DNA of 64,000 nucleotides from Clostridia bacterium. Its GTDB lineage: Bacteria; Bacillota; Clostridia; Oscillospirales; CAG-382. Of the stretch, positions 3,459 to 42,125 are shown one piece after another (position 1 is the stretch's first letter; every line of letters begins with the position of its first letter). The translations under genes were made by a program, and so were the position numbers. Below the pieces are notes generated by a model. It made no database searches and was not told where the DNA came from. It saw nothing but the letters and a program-made list of their open reading frames with translations. The stretch is taken from the NCBI GenBank assembly GCA_017537345.1, contig JAFYKY010000012.1:134665-198664 (forward strand). Reading direction: 5' to 3'.

Positions 3459-3585
3459 GGGACGATAGGGATATCGTCCCCTACGATTATCGAATAGCCG
3501 TGGCTGTTCGCAGACCGTAGGGGACGATGTCCCCACCTGCACCCCACAAAACCTGCGGTTTTGCGGGGAACCCCGCCGTCGTCCC
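3459..3585. repeat. REPIN-like inverted REP doublet; right REP has an H2 module nested in its loop
   Basis: Left REP is GGGACGATA-ggga-TATCGTCCC followed by CTAC (3459-3484). 32-nt linker GATTATCGAATAGCCGTGGCTGTTCGCAGACC. Right REP is GTAG (3517-3520) followed by GGGACGA ... CGTCGTCCC (to 3585), with an inverted H2 at 3539-3574 inside. The same doublet and linker occur at 52205-52288. Confidence 0.85.
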
Positions 3586-3788: not shown

Positions 3789-4769
3789 TTATTCTGTCGA
3801 GCGAAAGCGCAAAAAATTGGGGCAGCTTAAATACCTTTCTCCCGTATCGGGTAAAAGCACTACGATGGTTTTTCCCTCGTTTTCCTGCTTTTTTGCCTCT
3901 CGTACGGCGGCGCAAAGGGCGGCGCCGGAGGAAATTCCCGCCAGTATTCCTTCTTTTTTTGCAAGCAGGCGGGCGTATTTAAAGGCTTCCTCCTCGGTTA
4001 CCGTTTCCACCGTATCGTAAACGGAGGTATCCAGCACATCGGGCACAAATCCCGCGCCGATCCCCTGCAAGCCGTGAGCGCCTTTTTTGCCTCCCGAAAG
4101 CACGGGGGAGCCTGCAGGCTCAACGGCGACTACCTTGGTTTTCGGGTTTTTCTCTTTTAAAAATCTTCCCGTGCCGGTAATGGTTCCGCCGGTGCCCACG
4201 CCGCACACAAAAATATCCACGTTTCCGTCGGTATCTTCATATATCTCTCTGCCCGTGGTATCAAAATGGGCTTTGGGGTTTGCGGGGTTGGTAAACTGCC
4301 CCGCAATAATACTGCCCTTTATCTCTTTCAAAAGCTCGTTTGCTTTTGCGATCGCGCCGTCCATCCCATCGTTTGCGGGGGTAAGCACAAGGGAGGCGCC
4401 GTAGGCGGAAATAAGCATTTTTCTTTCTTCCGACATATTTTCGGGCATAACGATAATGCATTTGTACCCCCTCACGGCGCAAAGCGCGGCAAGACCTATA
4501 CCCGTATTACCCGAGGTAGGCTCGATAATCACCGTGTTTTTATTGATGATACCTGCCTTTTCGCCTTCGTCCAGAATACTTTTCGCTACTCTGTCCTTGG
4601 CGCTTCCGCCGGGGTTAAAGGATTCAAGCTTTGCAATAACGCGGCAGTTGAGCGAAAGCTCTTTTTTTATGTTGTTAAGCTCCAGAAGGGGAGTGCCGCC
4701 TATGAGAGCGTCTGCTCTCTGATAAATTTTTTCCATATTATTCCTGAGCAAATCTGCTGTAATATTCAA
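3789..4769 (-). CDS. cysK: cysteine synthase A (O-acetylserine sulfhydrylase)
   Basis: 326 aa. GGTPLLELN, KLESFNPGGSAKDR, PTSGNTGIGLA. Alternative start ATG at 4736, 1 nt after the upstream stop, is plausible. Confidence 0.9.
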   Translation of the reverse strand: MNITADLLRNNMEKIYQRADALIGGTPLLELNNIKKELSLNCRVIAKLESFNPGGSAKDRVAKSILDEGEKAGIINKNTVIIEPTSGNTGIGLAALCAVRGYKCIIVMPENMSEERKMLISAYGASLVLTPANDGMDGAIAKANELLKEIKGSIIAGQFTNPANPKAHFDTTGREIYEDTDGNVDIFVCGVGTGGTITGTGRFLKEKNPKTKVVAVEPAGSPVLSGGKKGAHGLQGIGAGFVPDVLDTSVYDTVETVTEEEAFKYARLLAKKEGILAGISSGAALCAAVREAKKQENEGKTIVVLLPDTGERYLSCPNFLRFRSTE

Positions 4770-7047
4770 TATACTGCTTCATCTGGTGCATCTTGTATAC
4801 GCCCTTCCAATCGTCTTTGCCCCAAAGCGCCATGGGAGTCATATAATGGGGGATATCGAAAACGATAATTCCATCGGAAAGAGTGTACTGCAGTGAAAGG
4901 GATTTTTCCGTTTCTTCAAAGCGTTTGGAGGAATAGTTTATCTCAAACACCTCCGCATCGTGCCAGAAATCCGCGCCCGCTTTTTCTATTCCCTTTTTCC
5001 ACGCCTGACAGTATTTAAGCCAATCTCCGTAGACCTTATCGGAAACAACAAGGCTTTGCTCTCTGCCAAGGCAATCCTGCACCGCAACAATATCCACCAC
5101 CGGCTTTTCTCCCTCGGCGGCGGGCTTTAACAGATCGTAAAGCTTATCCGAAATCTTGTCAACACTGCCGGAACGCCATATAGCGGGGGCGATCATTATC
5201 AGAGCGTCCTCGTCCAGCTTACGTATCACCTTGGACTGACCTTCGTATACCTTGCGGGCGGCTTCCACACCGCCGCTGAAATTAAGCCAGTAATCGCAGG
5301 TTTCATCGGAAAGATAATATCCGCCGAAAGCGGGATGGTCCCCGTACATTTCGTCAATATCCTTAATAACCTTTTCGCCGTCCGCCACTATAGCATCGTA
5401 CTGCGCCTGATTTTTTGAGGGGGCGGTGAAATCCGCATCGTGAATAGTGCCGATAAACACCTTCATACCCAGCTTTTCAGCCGCGTCAAGCACCGCCTTG
5501 CACATATCCTCCGTGCCGTAGGTGGGGGTGTATGTATATCCGGCGGCGGTAATGTTTTTGCCGTTTATAAGGGTGGTCTTTGCGTTGTAATGGGTGGAAT
5601 ACTGAATAATCACCGTACTCATACCCAGATCCCGCATACCTTTAAGGGAAAGATACCAGCTGTACGCATCGTTCTGTGTGGAAATGTCGTTTCCTCCGTT
5701 GGTGGGAAGCTGGTAAAAACCGCCGTCCACTACGGGCAAAGCCACGGTCTTGTTAAAGGTCTGAATTTCGTTTACCTCGCCGTCACATTTAAAAGAAAGG
5801 GTAAATTCACCGGATTCCACGGGGGTTTCAAGCAAAATAAGGGTAGTGTGCAGGCCTGCGGCGGAATTTTTTATAACCTTTCCTGCGGGAGAAATATCCG
5901 TAATTTCTGCGGTGGAAAGTATGTTCAAAGCCGTTACCGCACCCTTGGCTTTTACGGTCAGCGCACCGTCAACCTTTACGCCCGCATTTACAATGCCGTC
6001 GGTAAGGGCTTTGTCCCCTGCGCTCTTTATGGTGTTCACATCACCTACGGGAAGGGCAAGGGGAGGAGTGTATTCTTTTCTTGCGACAGAAGTATTTGCG
6101 CCCCAGATCTCAATTTCATCGGTGGCGAAAATTCCGTCCGCATAAGTAAATACCTTTATATATCTCGCTTCCACCGTGGCGGGACGGGTGACGGTGAATC
6201 GGTTTTGCTTGTTCTTTGCTTCCACAAGGAAGGATTGACCGAAATCTTCCCAGCTTTCGCCGTCTTTGGAATAACGTACGGCTATCCGTTCGGGAATCAC
6301 CGTTTTTATATCACCGTAAAGGAACGCGGAAACTGATACCTCACAAACGTTTTTCGCTTCGCCGAGATCAAGTGTGATAATATTTCCCTTTTTGCCGTTG
6401 CGGGGATCGGTATCGTGGGCGGTCTTTGCGGCAACAACGCTGTCGTCCCCCGTAAAATACACGCCGTCCGTAAGCTTTAACCCGTCTTTATCGGAATAAT
6501 CTCTCATTCCCGTGCCTTCCCATACGTAGGATGCGCCTAAGGAAAGCAGGGTCTTTTTTGCATAAGGCAGGGCGGTAACCGTAACCGAATCAAGGGTAAC
6601 GCTCTTTTTTTCAAAAACTATATTAAACGCCTTGCAGTCTGTGTTAAAATTAAAGGTGTCGGTATCAAATTCGCCCAAAAACTTTGTGAAATTATATCCG
6701 TCGTCAGATGCAAATACCTTGTAAGAGCAGTCTGCTCCCTTTAATTCCACCTTGCCGTCGGGGGCGGGGAAGCCGATATCTATAAACAGGGAAACACCGT
6801 TTAAGGGCAGTTTTTCTGTGTGGGTGTTGTTATACCAATCGGTAAAGGTAAGCTCCTCGGGGGCGTTTTCGTCCAAAGCCAGAACGTACTTTCCCTCGCT
6901 TTCCGTCATCACCGTGCCGCTTTCGGGCCATACACGGATATTTTCCAAAGCATAAGGCTCCATAAGCGGGGGCGTGGTTTCACAGCTTGTCATAAGAATA
7001 CCTCCAAGTAGGGCAATTAAAAGAAAAATACAAACGCTTCTTTTCAT
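4738..7047 (-). CDS. lipoprotein with discoidin (F5/8 type C)-like domain and DUF4434-like glycoside-hydrolase-like C-terminal domain
   Basis: 769 aa. Signal plus lipobox-like LLGGILMTSC. Central segment ...LKLTDGVY...ARYIKVF...DEIEIWG resembles F5/8-C. C-terminal TIM-barrel-like region. GGAGG RBS. Confidence 0.6.
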   Translation of the reverse strand: MKRSVCIFLLIALLGGILMTSCETTPPLMEPYALENIRVWPESGTVMTESEGKYVLALDENAPEELTFTDWYNNTHTEKLPLNGVSLFIDIGFPAPDGKVELKGADCSYKVFASDDGYNFTKFLGEFDTDTFNFNTDCKAFNIVFEKKSVTLDSVTVTALPYAKKTLLSLGASYVWEGTGMRDYSDKDGLKLTDGVYFTGDDSVVAAKTAHDTDPRNGKKGNIITLDLGEAKNVCEVSVSAFLYGDIKTVIPERIAVRYSKDGESWEDFGQSFLVEAKNKQNRFTVTRPATVEARYIKVFTYADGIFATDEIEIWGANTSVARKEYTPPLALPVGDVNTIKSAGDKALTDGIVNAGVKVDGALTVKAKGAVTALNILSTAEITDISPAGKVIKNSAAGLHTTLILLETPVESGEFTLSFKCDGEVNEIQTFNKTVALPVVDGGFYQLPTNGGNDISTQNDAYSWYLSLKGMRDLGMSTVIIQYSTHYNAKTTLINGKNITAAGYTYTPTYGTEDMCKAVLDAAEKLGMKVFIGTIHDADFTAPSKNQAQYDAIVADGEKVIKDIDEMYGDHPAFGGYYLSDETCDYWLNFSGGVEAARKVYEGQSKVIRKLDEDALIMIAPAIWRSGSVDKISDKLYDLLKPAAEGEKPVVDIVAVQDCLGREQSLVVSDKVYGDWLKYCQAWKKGIEKAGADFWHDAEVFEINYSSKRFEETEKSLSLQYTLSDGIIVFDIPHYMTPMALWGKDDWKGVYKMHQMKQYIEYYSRFAQE

Positions 7048-7227: not shown

Positions 7228-7255
7228 TTGAATTTATGCAAAAATGTGCTATAAT
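7228..7255 (+). promoter_or_regulatory. strong extended -10 promoter driving the large ncRNA
   Basis: TTGAAT (7228-7233), 16 nt, TGcTATAAT (TG 7247-7248, -10 at 7250-7255). No ORF or RBS follows. Confidence 0.65.
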
Positions 7256-7261
7256 AAATGA

Positions 7262-7882
7262 GCGATGGCGCAGTATTCTAGTTAGCGCGGCGTTTTTGAA
7301 GGCGTGCCTAAAAATACGTCAAACGGCAAATCGATGAAGCTCCTGGTGTTTGCTTTGTACGCCCAGTTCAGGGTGGATGCTGGGAGAGTGGACTGTGGGC
7401 GCACCCCAACGGCATGGGGCGGCTACCCCACTTTCCTTTGAGGCTTTTTCTTCGTGGCGGACCTACACAAACAAAAAAAGGGGGCTACGGGATTAAGATT
7501 AAACCTATCACGCGGTACGACCATTACAGATGCTGTGGATAGATGTAGCCGGCTTTGAGTGGGTCATGGCGGATAACGTTCATGTCGGGGTGAGATTAGC
7601 TACCGAACCCCGAATAAATCGCGTTTGAAATCATGCCTGCAAAAGAAGATAAGAAAACGTTTTGCGCTATGGCGGAAAACGCCTAGACTGTTATCGTGGC
7701 AGATAAACACGTATGGGCACGGTGCGGATTACAGTGCGGACTCATAGGCAATCAAGTCGCGGAACCGGTAACGCTCCGCCTCGGTCTTTAATGGGGAACC
7801 CCTTCATCGGCGACGAGAAGGAGACCGCGGGGAAATCCTACTTGACCGTAAGCCGCAAGGTCTACGTACCGTGCCGCCATTA
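7262..7882 (+). ncRNA. large structured ncRNA, probable OLE (ornate, large, extremophilic) RNA
   Basis: About 620 nt directly after a strong promoter. The only ORF of 60 aa or more is 7713-7916 (67 aa, no RBS). Visibly more G+C-rich than the AT-rich 7100-7255 region. Helices: ATGGCG 7265-7270 / CGCCAT 7875-7880; GGCACGGT 7716-7723 / ACCGTGCC 7868-7875; CGGGGT 7586-7591 / ACCCCG 7607-7612; GCGGA 7759-7763 / TCCGC 7775-7779; CCTCGGTC 7779-7786 / GACCGCGG 7823-7830. Synteny with the oapA-like/dxs/tlyA/nadK/argR/recN cluster. Class not verifiable without a covariance-model search. Confidence 0.55.
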
Positions 7883-7883
7883 T

Positions 7884-7990
7884 TATTCACCCCACAAAAG
7901 GTTTTTTGGCGAGTAGGGGCGTTTCACGAAACGCCCGCAACAGACAAAACATATCACGAAAAAACGCTTTTGCGGGGACCCCGAAAATAT
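7884..7990 (+). repeat. composite element X: inverted H2 hairpin split by an insert carrying a REP variant
   Basis: H2 arms CCCCACAAAAGG (7890-7901) and GCTTTTGCGGGG (7966-7977). Inside is GTAG followed by GGGCGTTTC/GAAACGCCC (7913-7938). A ~90 percent identical copy lies in reverse orientation at 42020-42125. Confidence 0.85.
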
Positions 7991-8227
7991 CAAACAGACA
8001 GTGGGAGCGCGTTCATTCGGCGCAGAAGACACCCCACAAAACTTGCGTTTTGCGGGGACCCCGTGAACCAAAAACGCAAAAACACACTCAAATGTTTCGA
8101 AAACCGTAGGGGACGACGTCCTCGTCGTCCCGCACACCACAAAACATACGGTTTTGCAGGGAACCCCGAAAATATCAAACAGACAGTGGGAACGCATTTT
8201 AGGGGTGGGTTCCTCATTCCTCATTAA
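7991..8227. repeat. REP/H2 mosaic (BIME-like)
   Basis: REP GTAG GGGACGACG-tcct-CGTCGTCCC (8106-8133). Inverted H2 copies at 8032-8057 and 8134-8168. 28-nt direct repeat CCCCGAAAATATCAAACAGACAGTGGGA at 7979-8006 and 8164-8191. Terminal heptamers TTCCTCA TTCCTCA then TTAA (8210-8227). Confidence 0.85.
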
Positions 8228-8241
8228 AAACGGTGGTAAAT

Positions 8242-8706
8242 ATGGTAAAAAACATTTTAAAATATTCCCTGTTTGGATTGACGGCGTCTTTTGCTTTTGC
8301 GGCTTTTACGATCTATCTGCTTGAGCCGAGAGAAAAACTTATCTCGGAACTGCCTAGGTATTGGCAGGTCATCTGGTTGGTGTTGCTTAATATCGTGGGA
8401 ATCTTTTCTCATTTCGCCGCAAGATTTAGCATTCCCCTTGTTGCCCGCGTATCAAAAAAATACAAAAAAGCACCCGTTATATTTTTGGCGGTGTTTGTAG
8501 TTATCGTGTTTGTTCTTTCCGGCGGAAAATACGGCGCCAGACACGGAAGAGGACTGTTTTTTATAATGCACGAAACGGCGGGCATAACTTCGGTTGCCGC
8601 GCTTGATATTATTTTGTTTTTCTTCATAATGCTGATCTCATATTTCGTTATTTGTGTTGTTACGGAATTCAAAAAAACGGAAAAAACAAAAAATGACAAA
8701 CAATAA
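8242..8706 (+). CDS. small polytopic membrane protein (about 4 TM), function unknown
   Basis: ORF 8233-8706. ATG at 8242 is preferred (GGTGG 5 nt upstream). Hydrophobic helices throughout. The 3' end overlaps the RAYT start by 14 nt. Confidence 0.5.
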   Translation: MVKNILKYSLFGLTASFAFAAFTIYLLEPREKLISELPRYWQVIWLVLLNIVGIFSHFAARFSIPLVARVSKKYKKAPVIFLAVFVVIVFVLSGGKYGARHGRGLFFIMHETAGITSVAALDIILFFFIMLISYFVICVVTEFKKTEKTKNDKQ

Positions 8707-9370
8707 ACCACCCCTCCCCAAACGTAAAAACACCCGCTGGGACAAGCAGGACTACTCCCACCCCGGCGAATATATGATAACTGTCTGCACAAAGGATATG
8801 AAACAGATATTATCGAGAATAACCGCCGGTAACCCGCAAACCGTAGGGGACGATATCCCTATCGTCCCGCACCACGTAAACGCACAAACCGTAGGGGACG
8901 ACGTCCTCGTCGTTCCGCACCCCACAAAACCTGCGGTTTTGCAGGGAACCCCGACCGTCCCGCATATCGAACTCACATATTTCGGAAAAATTGCGGATAA
9001 ATATATAAACCAATTAAACGATTTCTACGATAACATCAACGTAATAAAATACGTTATAATGCCGAATCATATACATTTGCTGTTGCAGATACCGGACGGG
9101 ACGACGAGGACGTCGTCCCCTACGAAAACAACTGACGGAACTAAGTGCGAAATCACGCCGTCCCCTATGGGTGAGCGAACAGACGCACGACCCGTTGAAC
9201 ATTCGATAATATCGGATTTTATTTCAACTTTCAAACGTTTCGTTCACCGCGATATCGGCGAGCAGATTTTTCAGCGCTCATATCACGATCACGTTATACG
9301 GGACGAAAACGATATGATCGGGGCTATAAATTATATAGAAAATAATCCACACAGATGGATAGAAAATTAA
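8693..9370 (+). CDS. REP-associated tyrosine transposase (RAYT; IS200/IS605 TnpA-like Y1 HUH enzyme) with in-frame REP insertions
   Basis: Start at ATG 8693 (MTNNKPPLPKRKNTRWDKQDYSHPGEYMITVCTKD). HUH motif VIMPNHIHLLLQ. C-terminal QRSYHDHVIRDENDMIGAINYIENNPHRW. Segments VGDDIPIVP, VGDDVLVVPHPTKPAVLQGTP and GTTRTSSPT are translated repeat hairpins. Confidence 0.8.
   Translation: MTNNKPPLPKRKNTRWDKQDYSHPGEYMITVCTKDMKQILSRITAGNPQTVGDDIPIVPHHVNAQTVGDDVLVVPHPTKPAVLQGTPTVPHIELTYFGKIADKYINQLNDFYDNINVIKYVIMPNHIHLLLQIPDGTTRTSSPTKTTDGTKCEITPSPMGERTDARPVEHSIISDFISTFKRFVHRDIGEQIFQRSYHDHVIRDENDMIGAINYIENNPHRWIEN
8843..8963 (+). repeat. two tandem REPs plus inverted H2 module inside the RAYT coding frame
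   Basis: GTAG GGGACGATA-tccc-TATCGTCCC (8843-8870). GTAG GGGACGACG-tcct-CGTCGTTCC (8891-8918). CACCCCACAAAACCTGCGGTTTTGCAGGGAACCCCG (8918-8953). Partial stem ACCGTCCCGC (8954-8963). Confidence 0.85.
9096..9124 (-). repeat. inverted REP inside the RAYT coding frame
   Basis: GGGACGACG-agga-CGTCGTCCC followed by CTAC (9098-9123). 27 nt identical to the reverse complement of the intergenic REP at 8106-8133. Confidence 0.85.
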
Positions 9371-9372
9371 AT

Positions 9373-9520
9373 TGTGAAGAGAGAAAAGAGAAGAGTGGAA
9401 AGAAACGGAAGATTTTTGCGTAATACGCAAAAATCAACCATAATTCCCGGGGTTCCCCGAAAACGCTGTGCGTTTTTGGGGTGGGTCATTCATCATTCCT
9501 CATTCCTCGTTCCTCATTTA
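9373..9520 (+). repeat. modular repeat (purine heptamers + module A + H2 + pyrimidine heptamers)
   Basis: GTGAAGA GAGAAAA GAGAAGA GTGGAAA GAAACGG (9374-9408). GATTTTTGCG-taata-CGCAAAAATC then AACCAT. CCCCGAAAACGC-tgt-GCGTTTTTGGGG. TCATTCA TCATTCC TCATTCC TCGTTCC TCATTTA (9486-9520). Near-identical copy at 15653-15795. Confidence 0.85.
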
Positions 9521-9569
9521 TTACAGCCATTACATATCAAAAACATTTATTTAAATTTTAGGATATAAA

Positions 9570-10136
9570 ATGAAAAACATAAAAGAAAAATCCAAACGCC
9601 GTGCGCGGCGGATATGGATAACATTTGCATTTATATTCAGCTTTATAATGACCGCCCTTCTTTCGCTGCTTTCCGGCGAAGCGTTGGAGGATCTTCCCGT
9701 TTGGGCAGCGCTGGCGGTGCTGCTTATCTTTATTTTGCTGGGTATCGTGTTCGATATGATCGGTCTGGCGGTCACCACGGCGGATATTTCCGCCTTCAAC
9801 GCTATGGCGGCGAAAAAAGACCCCGTGGGCAAGCGGGCTGTATGGCTTATCGCCAATGCGGAAAAGGTATCCTCCTTTTGCAACGATATAGTGGGCGATA
9901 TCTGCGGCGTAGTTTCGGGCGCTTCGGCGGCGACCATTGCGGTGGTGCTGTTTTCGGGACTGAGCTATGAGCTTGCGTTCTGGCTCACCCTTTCTCTTAC
10001 CGCTCTGGTTTCCTCCGTCACTGTGGGAGGAAAGGCGCTGGGCAAGAAGGCGGGTATCGATAAAAACAGGGAAATAACCCTTTTATGCGCAAAAATATTA
10101 AGTGTTTTTTCGAAAAAACAAGGAAAGAAAAAGTAA
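9570..10136 (+). CDS. oapA: 4-TM membrane protein, probable OLE-associated protein A
   Basis: 188 aa (about 20 kDa). Basic N-terminus KEKSKRRARR, four hydrophobic helices, Lys-rich tail. Sits immediately upstream of dxs-tlyA-nadK-argR-recN, the position reported for oapA. Assignment is by synteny and architecture only. Confidence 0.5.
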   Translation: MKNIKEKSKRRARRIWITFAFIFSFIMTALLSLLSGEALEDLPVWAALAVLLIFILLGIVFDMIGLAVTTADISAFNAMAAKKDPVGKRAVWLIANAEKVSSFCNDIVGDICGVVSGASAATIAVVLFSGLSYELAFWLTLSLTALVSSVTVGGKALGKKAGIDKNREITLLCAKILSVFSKKQGKKK

Positions 10137-10142
10137 AAAAGT

Positions 10143-11975
10143 ATGATACTTGAAACGGTTTCCACACCGGCAGACGTAAAAAAACTGCCTCCCGAACAAT
10201 TAAAGATACTGGCGGCGGAAATTCGTTCCGAGCTTATAAACGTAACCGCCTCAAACGGCGGGCATCTTGCCTCCAATCTGGGGGTGGTAGAGCTTACCAT
10301 CGCTATTCACCGTGTGTTCGATTGCCCCGAGGACAGAATTATTTTCGACGTAAGCCACCAGAGCTACGTTCACAAAATGCTTACGGGCAGGCGTCAGTTT
10401 ATGCACACCCTCCGCAAATACGGAGGGCTTTCCGGCTTCCAGAAGCGTTCGGAAAGCAAAGCAGACCCTTTCGGTTCGGGTCATTCCTCCACATCTGTTT
10501 CCGCGGCGGCAGGCTTTGCGGCGGCGGATAAAATTGCGGGCAGAAAGAATATTACCGTTGCGGTCATCGGCGACGGTGCGCTTACGGGCGGTATGGCGTA
10601 CGAGGCTCTTAACAACTGCGCCTCCTACGATAATATGGTTATTATCCTTAACGATAACGGGATGTCCATTTCCCCCAACGTAGGCGCCACCTCAAAGCTT
10701 CTTTCCCGCATAAGAGTAAGTAAAAAATATTTCGGATTCAAGCGGCTTGTTTACAAAGCCTTTATGGCTGTGCCGGGTATCGGCAAGGGCTTGGTGAATA
10801 TGGCTGTGGGCTTTAAAAACTGGGCAAAGCGGCATCTTGTGCACGAAAACCTTTTCGAGCAGTTGGGAATGCACTACTTCGGCCCTCTTGACGGACACGA
10901 TATCTCCGCTATGGAGGACGTGTTGCGTGAAGCCAAGGCGGACGGCAAATGCTCGGTTGTCCACGTTTGCACCAAAAAGGGCAACGGCTACGCCCCTTCG
11001 GAGAAAAACCCCGCCTTTTTCCACGGCGTTTCCGGCTTTGACAGAGAGACCGGCGCGGTTAAAGAGGGAGAGGGCAAGAGCTATTCTTCCGTTTTCGGCG
11101 AAACTCTCACCCGCCTTGCGTTTGCGGATAAGCGTATATGCGCAGTTACCGCCGCAATGGAATACGGCACGGGACTTGCCCCCTTTGCAAAAGCCTTTCC
11201 CGATAGATTTTTCGACGTGGGCATAGCGGAAGAACACGCAATGACCTTTTCCGCAGGTCTGGCGGCAGGGGGAATGAAGCCGGTCTTCGCGGTGTATTCC
11301 ACCTTTTCCCAAAGAGCATACGACCAGCTTATACACGACGTGGCTTTGCAAAAGCTTCCCGTGGTCATCGCTATGGACAGAGCGGGTATCGTCGGCTCCG
11401 ACGGACCTACCCACCACGGTATGTTCGATATGTCGTATCTCAACGCAATACCCAATATTACGGTCTGGTCGCCCTATACCGAAACCGAACTCAAGGTGTG
11501 CTTAAAGCGGGCGCTGGATCTTGATACTCCCTCCGTGGTGCGCTACCCCAGAGGAAACGTGCCCGAAGGACAGTCTATGTCCGATATAGATTACGCCGTA
11601 ACCGATTTCGGTCAGAGCGAATTCATATATACCGTGCTTATAACCACGGGCAGTGAAACGGCAGAGGCTTACCGCGCTTGCGAAATAGCCCACGCCAACG
11701 GAACCAACGTGCGGCTTATCCGTCTTATACGGGTAAAGCCCCTGCCCGATATATCCCATCTCATTAAAAACGCCCGTGTTATCGTAACGGCAGAGGAGGG
11801 TATGGTAAAGGGCGGTATCGGCGAAGGTATCGCCGCTATGTGCGCAAGCAAGCAGCTCCGCGCCCGCGTTACCGTTTGCGGCGCAACCGATTTTTTGCCC
11901 CACGGCGATGGCGGCACTCTGCGCGCGATGGCGGGAATAGACTCTACCTCCCTTGCGCGTAAATTATGCGAATAG
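10143..11975 (+). CDS. dxs: 1-deoxy-D-xylulose-5-phosphate synthase
   Basis: 610 aa. GGHLASNLGVVELTIAIHRVF, DVSHQSYVHKMLTGR, GDGALTGGMAYEALN, DVGIAEEHA. Confidence 0.95.
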   Translation: MILETVSTPADVKKLPPEQLKILAAEIRSELINVTASNGGHLASNLGVVELTIAIHRVFDCPEDRIIFDVSHQSYVHKMLTGRRQFMHTLRKYGGLSGFQKRSESKADPFGSGHSSTSVSAAAGFAAADKIAGRKNITVAVIGDGALTGGMAYEALNNCASYDNMVIILNDNGMSISPNVGATSKLLSRIRVSKKYFGFKRLVYKAFMAVPGIGKGLVNMAVGFKNWAKRHLVHENLFEQLGMHYFGPLDGHDISAMEDVLREAKADGKCSVVHVCTKKGNGYAPSEKNPAFFHGVSGFDRETGAVKEGEGKSYSSVFGETLTRLAFADKRICAVTAAMEYGTGLAPFAKAFPDRFFDVGIAEEHAMTFSAGLAAGGMKPVFAVYSTFSQRAYDQLIHDVALQKLPVVIAMDRAGIVGSDGPTHHGMFDMSYLNAIPNITVWSPYTETELKVCLKRALDLDTPSVVRYPRGNVPEGQSMSDIDYAVTDFGQSEFIYTVLITTGSETAEAYRACEIAHANGTNVRLIRLIRVKPLPDISHLIKNARVIVTAEEGMVKGGIGEGIAAMCASKQLRARVTVCGATDFLPHGDGGTLRAMAGIDSTSLARKLCE

Positions 11976-12694
11976 ACGTGTTTTTGGCGGAAAAGGGCTT
12001 GGCGCCCAGCCGCAGTAAAGCAAAAGAATATATAGATTCCGGCAAGGTTTTTTTAAACGGCGCCCCCGTTAAAAAAGCGGGACTGGAGGTTACGGGGACA
12101 GAGGATATCCGTGTTATGGATGCGGATAAATTCGTTTCCCGCGCAGGCAGAAAATTGGAAGCCGCTTTGGATATTTTCGGTATCGACGTTACGGATCTAA
12201 GCGCACTTGACCTTGGTGCGTCCACCGGCGGATTTACCGATTGCCTCTTGCAGAGAGGGGCAAAAAGGGTTATCGCCCTTGACGTAGGCAGGGATCAGCT
12301 TGATAAAAGCTTAAGAGAGGATGAGCGTGTTTTCGTAATGGAAAACACCAACGCCCGTGATATTTTTCCCGAAGACCTGCCTTTTTTACCGGATATTATT
12401 ACCACAGACCTTTCCTTTATTTCCCAGACTCTTGTTTACCCCGCAGTTGCAAGGGTGCTTGAAAAAGGCTACTTTATATCCCTTGTAAAGCCCCAGTTCG
12501 AAGCGGGGAGAGAGAATATCGGCAAGGGGGGAATAGTTAAGGATAAAGACGGTAAGATAAAAAAAGCGGTGCTTGAAAAAATAGAAAAAGCCGCTTCCGA
12601 AAACGGACTCCTGCTTTTGAAAACCGCCCCTTCACCCATTGCGGGAGGGGACGGAAACACAGAATATCTGGCACTTTTTGAAAGGAGTGTTTAA
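11966..12694 (+). CDS. tlyA: TlyA-family rRNA 2'-O-methyltransferase (hemolysin A-like)
   Basis: 242 aa. N-terminal S4 domain MRIDVFLAEKGLAPSRSKAKEYI. SAM motif LDLGASTGGFTDCLLQRGA. Overlaps the dxs stop by 10 nt. Confidence 0.9.
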   Translation: MRIDVFLAEKGLAPSRSKAKEYIDSGKVFLNGAPVKKAGLEVTGTEDIRVMDADKFVSRAGRKLEAALDIFGIDVTDLSALDLGASTGGFTDCLLQRGAKRVIALDVGRDQLDKSLREDERVFVMENTNARDIFPEDLPFLPDIITTDLSFISQTLVYPAVARVLEKGYFISLVKPQFEAGRENIGKGGIVKDKDGKIKKAVLEKIEKAASENGLLLLKTAPSPIAGGDGNTEYLALFERSV

Positions 12695-13483
12695 ATGAAA
12701 CGCGTTCAGCTCCTTGTAAATACGTTAAAGCCGGAAGCTCAGTACACCGCTATGAAGGTTACCGATGCCTTGACGGAATACGGTATGACAGTTACCGATA
12801 AAAATCCCGAAGCCATTATATCTATCGGCGGGGACGGTACGGTGCTTCGCGCCGCATCCATTGCCGCAAGGGCGGATATCCCCATCGTGGGTATAAACTG
12901 CGGCACACTGGGATATCTGAACGATATCGAATCGGACGAGACCGAACTTTTACAAAAATTAAAAACAGACGATTATACAGTGGATAAGCTTATGCTTCTT
13001 GCCGTCACCCTTTACAGAAAGGACGGCAGGCAGGAGGAATTTTTGGTGCTTAACGAGGTGCTGTTCTCCCGCGGGGCATCCCCCCGTATAGCGGATATCC
13101 ACCTTTATTCCGATGGTGTCCACGTTTCCGATTATTCGGCAGACGGGCTCATCTTTTCCACCCCTACGGGAAGCACGGCGTATTCCCTTTCCGCAGGAGG
13201 ACCTATTATACATCCCAGTCTTGAATCCATTACCGTTACTCCCGTTTGCCCCCATCCCACCGCATCTACCCGTGCAATAGTTTTCCCTGCGGACAGTATG
13301 CTTATGGTGGCGGCAGAGGTAAGAGGGGGCGCAAGCGCCTGCATTACCGTGGATTCCGCGCCTCCCGTGGAGTTTTGCCCCGGTGATTATGCGGTTATCC
13401 GCAAGAGCGAGCGCCACACAAAAATAGCCCGTATCAAAAACCGTAATTTCTATTCGGTTGTCCATAAAAAATTTAACGTTTGA
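12695..13483 (+). CDS. nadK: NAD kinase
   Basis: 262 aa. GGDGTVLRAA, NCGTLGYL, STPTGSTAYSLSAGGPI. Confidence 0.9.
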   Translation: MKRVQLLVNTLKPEAQYTAMKVTDALTEYGMTVTDKNPEAIISIGGDGTVLRAASIAARADIPIVGINCGTLGYLNDIESDETELLQKLKTDDYTVDKLMLLAVTLYRKDGRQEEFLVLNEVLFSRGASPRIADIHLYSDGVHVSDYSADGLIFSTPTGSTAYSLSAGGPIIHPSLESITVTPVCPHPTASTRAIVFPADSMLMVAAEVRGGASACITVDSAPPVEFCPGDYAVIRKSERHTKIARIKNRNFYSVVHKKFNV

Positions 13484-13499
13484 AAGGAAGCGGAGTAAA

Positions 13500-13958
13500 A
13501 TGAAAATAAAAAGACAAACAAAAATAATGGAGCTTATAAAAACCCGGGACGTAGATACCCAGGAAGAGCTTTTGATGCTGCTTCGCGCCGCAGGATTTGA
13601 ATGTACCCAAGCTACCGTATCCAGAGATATACGTGAGCTTAAAATAGTAAAGGCTTCCAACGGAAAGGGCGGCTACCGCTACGTTTCCGCAACCCTGCCC
13701 ACCTCCGAGCATATCGCAACCAAGTTTGCAAAGATACTTGCAGACACGGTAAAGAGCGTGGATCAGGCAATGAATCTGGTAGTGCTCCGCACCTATATGG
13801 CAATGGCATCCGCCGCCTGCATCACTATCGACGCTATGAATTTTGAAGGTATCCTGGGCTCTATCGCAGGGGACGATACCATAGTTTTAATTACCAAAAA
13901 CGAGGAAGATGCTCACCGTATCTGCGTAAAGTTAAAGGAACAGATCGGCGCGGCGTAA
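13500..13958 (+). CDS. argR: arginine repressor
   Basis: ATG 13500 preferred (GGAAGCGGAG upstream). MKIKRQTKIMELIKTRDVDTQEELLMLLRAAGFECTQATVSRDIRELK. C-terminal GSIAGDDTI. Confidence 0.9.
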   Translation: MKIKRQTKIMELIKTRDVDTQEELLMLLRAAGFECTQATVSRDIRELKIVKASNGKGGYRYVSATLPTSEHIATKFAKILADTVKSVDQAMNLVVLRTYMAMASAACITIDAMNFEGILGSIAGDDTIVLITKNEEDAHRICVKLKEQIGAA

Positions 13959-13967
13959 AAAACAGAT

Positions 13968-15632
13968 ATGCTTTTTTCATTACATATCCGCTGTGTTGCA
14001 CTTATTAAAGAATTGGATATAGACCTTTCCGAGGGGCTTACCGTCTTTACGGGTGAAACGGGCGCAGGTAAAAGTATTATCATAGATTCAATAGCCCTGC
14101 TTTGCGGCGCACGGAGCGATAAAAGTATTATCCGCACCGGTGAAGACAGCGCCGAGGTGGAGGGTGTTTTCGGTATGCTTTCTTCCGATGTGCTAAAGGC
14201 GTTGGAAACCGAAGAGGTGTACCCCGATGAAGAGGGAAATCTGTTCCTTACCCGCCGCATTACCGCAGACGGCAGAAGCGTTTCCCGCATAAACGGCAGA
14301 GTTGTGCCCGTGGGCAAGCTCCGTGCAGTTTCCGCATATCTTCTGGATATTCACGGTCAGCAGGATACCACCCGTCTGGCAGACGAAAGCATTCATCCCG
14401 CCCTTTTGGATCTGTATGCGGATAACGGCAGGGAAAAGGAAGAATATTCGGCTGCCTACCGCGCCTACACCGCCTTGCGCAAGGAAAAGCAAGAGCTGGA
14501 AGACAGTATGAACAATACCGAGGAAAGAAAGGATTTTCTTTCCTACCGTCTTAAAGAGCTTCGCCGCGCAAAGATAAAAGCGGGTGAGCAGGAAGAGCTT
14601 ACCGCAAAACGAAACCTGCTTTTAAACCGCGAAAAGATAGTGGTTTCCGCAAGAAACGCTTATTACGCCCTGTATGAAAAAGACGAATCTGCTGCTTCTT
14701 TGATTTCCGAAGCGGAGAGCGCTCTGGACACCCTTTCGGATTACGTGCCCGAAGCAAAGGATTTAAAAAACCGTCTTGAAAGCGTGCGGTTGGAAATAGA
14801 AGATATTGCGGATACCGTTACTGCCTATACCGACGATCCGGACGGCGACCCCCAGTCCGCGCTGGATAATATAGAATCTCGCCTTTCTCTCATTTCCTCT
14901 CTGTGCCGTAAGTACCGTACCGACGAGGAGGGGCTTATAACTCTCCTTACAGAAACGGAAAACGAGCTTAATTCCATAGAAAACAGCGTGTTCCGCAAGG
15001 AAGATATAGAAAAAGAGCTTGCGGATGCGGAAAAACAAGCCTCCGCCCTTGGCGAAAAGCTGTATTCCACCCGCGCCCGCGCCGCAAAGGAAATGGAAAA
15101 GCAGATAAAGGATATCCTTTACGGCTTGGATATGCCGGGAGTCACCTTTGTGACCGAGTTTGAAAAAACTCCACTTTCCCCTTGGGGTACGGAAAAAGCA
15201 AGATTTTTAATATCTGCCAATGCAGGCGAAGAGCCCCGCCCCGTTGCCAAAATAGCATCGGGCGGTGAATGTGCCCGTATAATGCTGGCGGTAAAGAGCG
15301 TGCTGGCAAACGCAGAAAATATAAGCACTATGATATTCGACGAGGTGGACACGGGTATCTCGGGAGCTACCAGCTCCCGTATCGGTATGCGGCTCAAAGC
15401 GCTGGCGGGAACGGAAAAGCAGGTTATATGCGTTACCCATTCCGCACAGATAGCCGCTTTGGCAAAAAACCACCTGCTCATTTCAAAAAGCGCATCCTTC
15501 GGCAGGACCGAAACCCACGTACGCCCCCTTTCCGGCGAAGCCCGCGTGAAAGAGGTTGCACGTATAATGGGCGGTATCGATCCGGGCGAGGAAATAATAA
15601 ACGCTGCAAGAACAATGATAAAAAACCCGTGA
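13968..15632 (+). CDS. recN: DNA repair protein RecN
   Basis: 554 aa. LTVFTGETGAGKSIIIDS Walker A, coiled-coil middle, ASGGECARIMLA signature, MIFDEVDTGISG. Confidence 0.95.
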   Translation: MLFSLHIRCVALIKELDIDLSEGLTVFTGETGAGKSIIIDSIALLCGARSDKSIIRTGEDSAEVEGVFGMLSSDVLKALETEEVYPDEEGNLFLTRRITADGRSVSRINGRVVPVGKLRAVSAYLLDIHGQQDTTRLADESIHPALLDLYADNGREKEEYSAAYRAYTALRKEKQELEDSMNNTEERKDFLSYRLKELRRAKIKAGEQEELTAKRNLLLNREKIVVSARNAYYALYEKDESAASLISEAESALDTLSDYVPEAKDLKNRLESVRLEIEDIADTVTAYTDDPDGDPQSALDNIESRLSLISSLCRKYRTDEEGLITLLTETENELNSIENSVFRKEDIEKELADAEKQASALGEKLYSTRARAAKEMEKQIKDILYGLDMPGVTFVTEFEKTPLSPWGTEKARFLISANAGEEPRPVAKIASGGECARIMLAVKSVLANAENISTMIFDEVDTGISGATSSRIGMRLKALAGTEKQVICVTHSAQIAALAKNHLLISKSASFGRTETHVRPLSGEARVKEVARIMGGIDPGEEIINAARTMIKNP

Positions 15633-15652: not shown

Positions 15653-15795
15653 GTGAAGAGAGAAAAGAGAAGAGTGAAAAGAAACGGAAGATTTTTGCGT
15701 ATTACGCAAAAATCAACCATCCCGGGGTTCCCCGCAAAACCGCAGGTTTTGTGGGGTGGGTCATTCATCATTCATCATTCCTCATTCCTCATTAA
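15653..15795 (+). repeat. modular repeat (same composite as 9373-9520)
   Basis: GTGAAGA GAGAAAA GAGAAGA GTGAAAA GAAACGG. GATTTTTGCG-tatta-CGCAAAAATC then AACCAT. CCCCGCAAAACC-gca-GGTTTTGTGGGG. TCATTCA x2, TCATTCC x2. Ends in TTAA (15792-15795). Confidence 0.85.
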
Positions 15796-41924: not shown

Positions 41925-42125
41925 TTAACGATGAACGATGAACGATAAACGATGAACTTCGGAAGCTTTTTGCACGGCTGTGCAAAAAGCAACCATTAGT
42001 TCATAGTTTATAGTTCATAGTTTTTTTCGGGGTCCCCGAGAAAGCGTTTTTTCGTGATATGTTTCGTCTATTGCGGGCGATTCGTGAATCGCCCCTACTC
42101 ATCAAAAAACCTTTCTTGGGGTGAA
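41925..42125. repeat. compound repeat inside the ymcA-mutS intergenic region
   Basis: TTAACGATG AACGATG AACGATA AACGATG AACTTCG. TTCGGAAGCTTTTTGCAC-ggct-GTGCAAAAAGCAACCATT (41958-41997). AGTTCAT AGTTTAT AGTTCAT. Then element X in reverse (42020-42125) with REP variant GGGCGATTC/GAATCGCCC followed by CTAC (42075-42098). Confidence 0.85.

Follow-up and report, generated by a model that had tools for sequence, protein, structure and literature searches.

The window, a 64,000-nucleotide (nt) stretch of contig JAFYKY010000012.1 from a Clostridia bacterium to which all window coordinates below refer, contains a gene for OLE RNA and, downstream on the same strand, oapA, which encodes a protein partner of this RNA, of a type that binds OLE RNA and brings it to the membrane. 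Between the two lie repeats and two further genes, one for a small protein with four predicted membrane-spanning segments (the 4-TM protein) and one for a RAYT, a REP-associated transposase. The locus is laid out as follows:

7249-7896, plus strand: OLE RNA gene (RF01071)
7884-8241, no strand assigned: left repeat mosaic, followed by the ribosome-binding site of the 4-TM gene
8242-8706, plus strand: 4-TM gene, 154 amino acids (aa)
8693-9370, plus strand: RAYT gene, 225 aa, TnpA_REP-type HUH Y1 transposase
9373-9520, no strand assigned: composite repeat of the terminal inverted repeat (TIR) type
9570-10136, plus strand: oapA, 188 aa, OapA type

A preliminary description of this DNA had named four blocks between the RNA and oapA (a REP/H2 mosaic, the 4-TM gene, the RAYT gene and a composite repeat), and all four lie where it placed them. 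Its coordinates for the 4-TM reading frame stand as well, while the length it gave, 155 aa, has to be corrected to 154 aa (155 codons including the stop). OLE and oapA are 1686 nt apart with the two genes between them, and the RAYT start codon falls within the last 14 nt of the 4-TM gene, an overlap of exactly 14 nt.

The RNA gene matches Rfam RF01071 on the plus strand at 7249-7896 with 385.2 bits (gathering score 50), covers the full model (positions 1-616) and is not truncated. It is 93-97% identical to the OLE of three related loci (L001, L060 and L066), and homology with the relatives stops at about 7882-7883 (…GCCGCCATTA). OapA is a small membrane protein with a hallmark DxxxD motif and distant similarity to the CNNM domain (PMC11332333). 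The product of the gene at 9570 has these features: it is a small membrane protein that matches PF01595 (CNNM) with 21 bits (E=2.5e-4), under the Pfam cut-off, as expected for OapA, and its D106-I-V-G-D110 is invariant in 38/38 OLE-adjacent homologues. Together with synteny with dxs-tlyA-nadK-argR-recN, this confirms the earlier proposal that the protein is OapA-like.

The sole family match of the window RAYT is NCBIfam REP_Tyr_transpos (NF047646; E=1.5e-14, 54 bits), and its family profile matches only PDB 4ER8, E. coli TnpA_REP. Both the HUH motif (H126-I-H128) and a candidate catalytic tyrosine, Y214 (in INYIENNP), are present and invariant in 15 sequences, and Y214 aligns with the tyrosine of VDYIYINP in 4ER8. 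Messing et al. in 2012 reportedly identified Y115 as the catalytic residue of E. coli TnpA_REP. The RAYT is also accompanied by repeats of the expected kind. The hairpin flanking it, GTAGGGGACGACGTCCTCGTCGTCCC, has a GTAG tag, which is typical of REPs (PMC3733652, PMC8266576); one such REP lies upstream of the gene (8106-8131), further copies are dispersed in the window (at 3459, 52205 and 52263), and in L074 GTAG REPs stand on both sides of the RAYT gene. The window holds one RAYT copy, and only one was found per contig of the relatives. Since there is one copy per contig, and the flanks differ between relatives and show no common ends, the element does not qualify as a member of IS200/IS605.

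To see how OLE and oapA are arranged elsewhere, we used 59 loci encoding OapA relatives, taken from species-representative genomes; OLE was located in 51 of them and the gap could be measured in 48. In these 48 other species OLE and oapA are separated by a median of 62 nt and by no more than 556 nt, and tblastn with the 4-TM protein and the RAYT gave no match in any of the 59 loci. This upholds the earlier statement that in described OLE loci oapA directly follows the RNA, and agrees with oapA being the commonest immediate downstream neighbour of ole (PMC12265935); the window lacks this immediate adjacency, which is typical of RF01071 loci and not a defining feature of them. The closest of the 59 loci, that of the sister species L001 (Dxs 83% and OLE 93% identical to the window), aligns with the window up to 7882 and resumes at 9581, with 66 nt in L001 versus 1698 nt in the window; its OLE-oapA spacer is 53 nt. 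Junctions resembling an empty site, for which the preliminary description had proposed to look, are thus found both in the sister species and throughout the larger sample. Because other species have short spacers with neither gene, and oapA is the usual neighbour of ole, the cassette of the window is an insertion relative to an ancestral, tightly linked ole-oapA arrangement.

The insertion is shared by relatives of the window. The order OLE - repeats - 4-TM gene - RAYT - repeat - oapA - dxs is also seen in L060, L062, L063, L064, L066 and L077, and L072 and L074 have OLE - repeats - RAYT - repeat - oapA without the 4-TM gene. L061 likewise has both the 4-TM gene and the RAYT at the OLE site. 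At least six related lineages carry a RAYT at the OLE site, four of these with the 4-TM gene, and the Dxs of the OLE-site carriers is ~93% identical to that of the window. The insertion is therefore old and fixed in a genus-level clade and not a strain-level event; of the earlier image of a repeat-bounded cassette dropped into the junction, the insertion holds and the recent drop-in does not. For the main arrangement an assembly artefact is ruled out, because the same order occurs in independent assemblies from different samples. We also considered the sequence that follows OLE (ATCAAA…GGGAGCGCGTTCA…) as an ancestral spacer common to L001 and rejected it, because it proved to be a mobile unit: the window has two copies of it (7974-8013 and 8159-8198), and in L072 and L070 it stands at the RAYT 3′ end.

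The two-gene unit is not confined to the OLE site. In L073 the gene order is dnaA-dnaN-recF-remB-4TM-RAYT-gyrB-gyrA, with RemB confirmed by NCBIfam; L067 has remB-4TM-RAYT, and L076 has remB-RAYT-gyrB without the 4-TM gene. In L068 and L069 the order is remB-4TM-gyrB, with a collinear remnant of the first ~80-95 nt of RAYT directly after the 4-TM stop and then a GTAG REP (0 of 1000 shuffles reach the alignment score of the remnant). L075 has its RAYT at a third site, among genes that in L060 and L066 are found upstream of OLE. There the RAYT (L075:5001-5588) sits between a TMEM164-like gene and a 439-aa gene; the block formed by the NTP_transferase, nSTAND, 139-aa and TMEM164 genes has an orientation to the 438-aa/AI-2E genes unlike that in L066, and NTP_transferase is not followed by OLE. 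This arrangement suggests a rearrangement with the RAYT at its breakpoint.

The overlap of the 4-TM stop and the RAYT start (8-14 nt) is homologous in all pairs, so the pair arose once and has since been passed on or moved together. Sequences do not cluster by locus in a neighbour-joining tree built on the RAYT core: the RAYTs of L073 and L076, at the gyrB site, are 83-85% identical to that of the window, and those of L066 and L077, at the OLE site, 77-79%. With the same unit at remB-gyrB in relatives and a RAYT at a third site, the gene orders show that the unit has apparently changed its chromosomal position. Occupancy of remB-gyrB strengthens the case for a cassette, and the presence of RAYTs at three different loci in related genomes argues against their immobility.

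Hydropathy gives the 154-aa protein four hydrophobic segments, that is, four predicted membrane-spanning segments, and it has no match in Pfam, NCBIfam, PADLOC or PHROGs. Homologues form ten clusters in a word-seeded search, and a profile search returned 7 matches among 1.84 billion cluster representatives, so that the protein belongs to a tiny orphan family; a metagenome scan with the 4-TM alignment yielded no confirmed relative. A defence-system or phage origin of the cassette found no support in PADLOC or PHROGs. We followed the suggestion that the homologues be searched for co-occurrence with RAYT genes and found them nearly always directly upstream of a RAYT, overlapping it by 8-14 nt. 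The coupling, which had been called an unusual pairing, is thus recurrent among the homologues without being obligatory: the RAYT stands alone in L072, L074 and L076, and L068 has the 4-TM gene with a decayed RAYT remnant, so either member of the pair can be lost.

The flanks of the two genes are built from several families of hairpin repeats:

7886-7987: 102-nt unit in the left mosaic, recurring at 42024-42125 on the minus strand with 90% identity
~7960-7985, 8030-8063 and 8133-8167: three H2-type hairpins in the left mosaic
8106-8131: GTAG-tagged REP in the left mosaic
8210-8225: TTCCTCA heptads in the left mosaic
Within 9373-9520, parts of the composite repeat: degenerate reverse heptads; a hairpin at 9411-9435; an inverted H2 hairpin at 9448-9483; heptads at 9489-9518

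Per pattern, the repeats give 5-14 matches, versus 0-0.26 expected in shuffled sequence, and elsewhere in the window these families are intergenic. The composite repeat is 88% identical over 145 nt to a copy at 15653-15793. On the right flank L060, L066 and L074 have it at the same position, highly conserved; the repeat content of the left flank differs among the window, L060, L066, L072 and L074. The 102-nt unit follows OLE directly in the window; L074 has the unit and L072 part of it, and it is absent from L060 and L066, a distribution that shows continuing repeat turnover at the junction. At orthologous positions of the right flank (window 9371-9569, L066:7025-7229, L074:4534-4739), L074 has a GTAG-REP just 3′ of the RAYT stop, L066 has GTAG+TCCGC left of it and the window has none, which is consistent with REP excision or insertion events.

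Hairpins also gather next to OLE in other species. Their OLE-oapA spacers contain 13 H2-type palindromes in 5.6 kilobases (kb), versus 3 in the other 434 kb of these same loci. H2 palindromes with GGGGACCCC cores stand directly after the OLE 3′ end in L005, L008, L009, L010, L014, L017 and L040. We infer that the OLE 3′ flank may be a recurrent or preferred landing site for hairpin repeats. The end of the composite repeat is complementary over 15 nt to the OLE -10 region, a match that was taken as chance.

The same repeats are found in frame within the RAYT gene itself, at two sites:

8843-8953, plus strand (site 1): two GTAG-REP hairpins (8843-8869 and 8891-8917) and one H2 hairpin (8918-8953), in frame in the RAYT open reading frame (ORF) and read as VGDDIPIVP…VGDDVLVVPHPTKPAVLQGTP
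9098-9123, minus strand (site 2): one GTAG-REP, inverted and in frame, just after the HUH strand and read as GTTRTSSPT

A single base distinguishes the stretch 8891-8916, inside the gene, from the extragenic REP at 8106-8131. Orthologous RAYTs are 176-262 aa long, and they differ in length because REP and H2 units have been gained or lost in frame in two loops. Every RAYT gene examined has a GTAG-REP in frame at site 1 (VGxxxxxxP), and most have the reverse-complement hairpin at site 2 (G..RT..PT), immediately past the HUH strand. In many members the unit is duplicated in tandem; the in-frame inverted pair is seen in the window, in L060, L066 and L072-L077, and in proteins P0016-P0135.

We examined covariation in 120 listed homologues (P0016-P0135, 45-93% identity). 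At the stem positions we counted the amino-acid pairs T-C (62), D-V (25), T-R (15), T-G (14), A-R (6), G-A (2), V-D (2) and A-C (1), and 4 of 131 instances are incompatible with reverse-complementary codons, the chance compatibility of amino-acid pairs being 13%. The two sites also change together: DCP at site 1 goes with GQS at site 2 in 54 cases, DGP with GPS in 12, DRP with GRS in 6, and VVP or IVP with GTT…SSPT in 13. Since sites 1 and 2 covary as one hairpin read on opposite strands, the RAYT ORF contains a co-evolving inverted REP doublet. This supports the view that in this clostridial RAYT family an in-frame inverted pair of the enzyme's own REP flanks the HUH motif and has co-evolved. 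In the accessible REP/RAYT literature we found no description of an in-frame REP doublet.

Pairwise ratios of nonsynonymous to synonymous substitution (dN/dS) are 0.19-0.49 for the 4-TM gene and 0.14-0.48 for RAYT, compared with 0.04-0.17 in nearly all pairs for oapA, dxs and tlyA; the exceptions for these three genes, up to 0.59, lie in the L060-L066-L077 group, where dS is small. As the values of the cassette genes are well below 1 and yet above those of their neighbours, both are real genes under purifying selection that evolve several times faster than the genes around them. The alleles are, moreover, mosaic. L060 and L066 have dS of 0.046 in dxs and 0.029 in oapA, yet share 56% identity in the 4-TM protein and 71% in the RAYT; between L066 and L077 identity is 92% in the RAYT and 48% in the 4-TM protein; and between the window and L060, dS is ~0.3 in the cassette versus ~0.6 in the flanks. 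Such mosaicism beside near-identical flanks indicates that cassette alleles recombine within and around the module independently of the flanks, which implies probable breakpoints both inside and around it.

We conclude, with good though not complete confidence, that 7884-9569 is a relocatable REPtron-like module with an accessory gene, inserted in the OLE-oapA spacer. Several observations weigh against this conclusion. The RAYT scores under the equivalog cut-off of NF047646 (80 bits; 54 in the window and 53-74 in insert-free relatives), and it is, from these scores, best placed in a divergent clostridial branch and not as a strict equivalog. The AlphaFold model of the 4-TM protein has low confidence (pLDDT 61.6). 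Exact insertion boundaries or a target-site duplication could not be defined, as both flanks are mobile repeat units that differ between relatives. Among the contigs of the relatives, none of them complete genomes, we saw no genome with two cassette copies. All relatives are metagenome-assembled contigs, so some of the contexts could be chimeric at repeats. A case in point is L061, whose 4-TM protein is identical to that of L060 and whose RAYT differs from that of L060 by a single in-frame 15-aa repeat-unit indel. Upstream of OLE, L061 has rpmH-rnpA-yidC-jag and L060 has NTP_transferase, and the point at which the two diverge (L061:3300-3800, L060:4350-4900) coincides exactly with a composite repeat ~190 nt upstream of OLE; either a rearrangement has truly moved the ole operon beside the replication origin, or the assembly is chimeric. 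The statements on promoters and terminators made below come from a simple consensus scan. Finally, the 53-nt spacer of L001 contains part of a repeat unit that occurs in the window clade (fragment CCATTAGGAGCGCGTCC), and because of this fragment L001 may have lost an element rather than never having had one.

The fragment in L001 could be read further, as the scar of a deletion from a locus in which the 4-TM and RAYT genes are native, long-standing members and nothing was inserted, and the retention of the genes at the OLE site in at least six lineages fits that idea. It is nonetheless unlikely. Short spacers occur in 48 species from many genera, neither gene is found in the 59 loci, an identical two-gene unit stands at remB-gyrB in other relatives, and the 4-TM family is tiny; at most, native membership would mean that the insertion predates the split from L001.

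Still less probable is that the cassette is inert debris, a decaying transposase pseudogene with repeat insertions next to a spurious or degenerating ORF. One would then understand why the RAYT ORF has been invaded by REP and H2 units and ranges from 176 to 262 aa among close relatives, why it has no Shine-Dalgarno sequence, why either gene is lost in some lineages and why dN/dS exceeds that of the neighbours. All repeat insertions, however, keep the frame and are confined to two loops, 12 lineages have intact ORFs, neither HUH nor Tyr varies, and both genes have dN/dS well below 1; REPs that are present or absent at orthologous flank positions (window, L066, L074) suggest that REP turnover is ongoing.

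That the 4-TM protein is instead a new OLE-associated membrane protein, an OapA-like partner or paralogue in the OLE ribonucleoprotein with the RAYT incidental to it, we regard as highly improbable: it is small, conserved and under purifying selection, and is encoded on the same strand directly after OLE and before oapA, but it has no OapA similarity by BLASTP (E=4.3) or profile-profile comparison (hhalign probability 0.3%) and no DxxxD, its gene is absent from L072 and L074, which retain OLE, RAYT and oapA, and in other genomes it follows remB, far from OLE, thus tracking RAYT and not OLE.

The remaining features of the operon that begins at OLE are:

7228-7255, plus strand: sigma-70-type promoter-like site just 5′ of OLE (TTGAAT-16-TATAAT with TG, consensus scan)
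10143-15632, plus strand: rest of the co-directional operon (dxs, tlyA-like methyltransferase, NAD kinase, argR, recN)
10143-11975, plus strand: dxs (Pfam)
11966-12694, plus strand: tlyA-like methyltransferase (Pfam)

NAD kinase, argR and recN were assigned from length and synteny with L060 and L066, and all genes from OLE through recN are co-directional. The promoter-like sequence is kept upstream of OLE in L001, L060 and L061. The scan of 9371-9569 found no consensus promoter just upstream of oapA, and the only plus-strand terminator-like match in 7884-9569 is a weak 6-bp stem at 8474-8491, inside the 4-TM ORF. In L001 there is no room for a promoter between OLE and oapA. A candidate promoter inside the composite repeat (TTGCGT-17-CATAAT, 9417-9445) has 8/12 matches, under the threshold of the scan, and other copies of the repeat lie between convergent genes; we make no claim for it. 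Directly 3′ of recN, where the operon that begins at the OLE promoter ends, a second full copy of the composite repeat (15653-15793) lies between convergent genes. Upstream of the window OLE is a divergent gene for a 769-aa DUF4434 / F5/8-type-C protein (4738-7047, minus strand), which stands where described ole loci usually have xseB/ispA; the upstream context of OLE varies among close relatives.

In the mechanism that we propose, 7884-9569 would be a REPtron-type element, made up of the RAYT, its cognate GTAG REPs, other hairpin and TIR repeats and a 4-TM accessory gene, lying in the orientation of the operon. Read-through from the OLE promoter across the cassette is, we infer, the simplest reading of its transcription, and expression of RAYTs by upstream read-through has been proposed before (PMC3733652). 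As the RAYT gene lacks a Shine-Dalgarno sequence, translational coupling to the 4-TM gene would give a low level of the enzyme. The genes from oapA and dxs to recN would then depend on read-through across the cassette or on a hidden promoter within the composite repeat, which is conserved. Hairpins stand on both sides of the module; in L074 it is direct copies of REP plus hairpin that enclose it. Relocation could proceed by RAYT-catalysed single-strand excision and insertion at the flanking hairpins, in the manner of IS200/IS605, or by RecA-mediated homologous recombination between direct composite-repeat copies that bracket the module; we hold the two routes to be about equally likely.

Among known systems the closest is the REPtron, a tnpA_REP/RAYT gene with its cognate REP/BIME, described in E. 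coli (yafM), Stenotrophomonas, Marinomonas and Pseudomonas (Nunvar 2010, Ton-Hoang 2012, Bertels & Rainey 2011, Corneloup 2021 PMC8266576). Like REPtrons, the cassette has a TnpA_REP-type HUH Y1 enzyme, of which PDB 4ER8 is the only solved relative, flanking GTAG palindromes that are also dispersed in intergenic regions, one copy seen, and plausible expression by read-through. Unlike them, it includes a 4-TM accessory gene that is conserved and translationally coupled, is embedded in a housekeeping operon, with a structured non-coding RNA on one side and the gene of the protein partner of that RNA on the other, and has a RAYT gene that contains an in-frame inverted REP pair and scores under the NCBIfam equivalog cut-off. 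Furthermore, modules of the window type are found at different loci in related genomes, whereas for REPtrons there is "no evidence of tnpAREP mobility" (PMC8266576).

With IS200/IS605 elements (IS608, ISDra2) the cassette shares a related Y1 HUH transposase, a hairpin-bordered coding region, the possibility of a second gene (tnpB in IS200/IS605) and an orientation consistent with action on single-stranded DNA. It differs in having no tnpB, its second gene being upstream and encoding a membrane protein; no multi-copy identical elements were seen, no left and right ends (LE/RE) or target tetranucleotide could be defined, and the flanks are multi-family repeat mosaics. TIRtrons (or TIRYTs) are RAYT-like genes flanked by long TIRs (Di Nocera 2013, PMC3733652). 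The composite repeat resembles their ends in being a TIR-type unit (reverse heptads, hairpin, forward heptads) with dispersed copies of its own; in the cassette, however, GTAG REPs and TIR-type units coexist, and the latter are direct copies and not one inverted pair of ends. As for the host locus, it agrees with canonical ole-oapA loci of Bacillota (Halalkalibacterium halodurans; Puerta-Fernandez 2006, Block 2011; PMC12265935, PMC11332333) in its full-length OLE, OapA with DxxxD and same-strand dxs-tlyA-nadK-argR-recN, and departs from them in the distance of oapA from OLE, 1686 nt where tens of nucleotides are usual, in the two foreign genes that separate them and in upstream genes other than xseB/ispA.

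A broader proposal, which we put forward tentatively and believe rather less readily than its alternatives taken together, is that this clostridial RAYT lineage, rather than being frozen and domesticated, is a still-relocating two-gene element (4-TM protein and RAYT) that hops, or is exchanged, between origin-proximal housekeeping operons, with the in-frame REP doublet as a template or self-recognition site. As a master or template copy, the doublet could keep the evolution of enzyme and repeats in step; as a self-recognition site, it could instead give the RAYT a means to regulate or rearrange the gene that encodes it.

For the biology of OLE, the locus would mean that tight ole-oapA linkage is dispensable, as this junction accommodates 1.7 kb of foreign genes and hairpins throughout a whole genus, and the window clade would be a natural test of whether OLE and oapA need to be co-transcribed. 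For mobile DNA, RAYTs are regarded as single-copy and immobile (PMC8266576), whereas here a RAYT with a coupled passenger gene occupies three loci in relatives. The in-frame inverted REP pair may help to explain how the match between a RAYT and its REP population is maintained.

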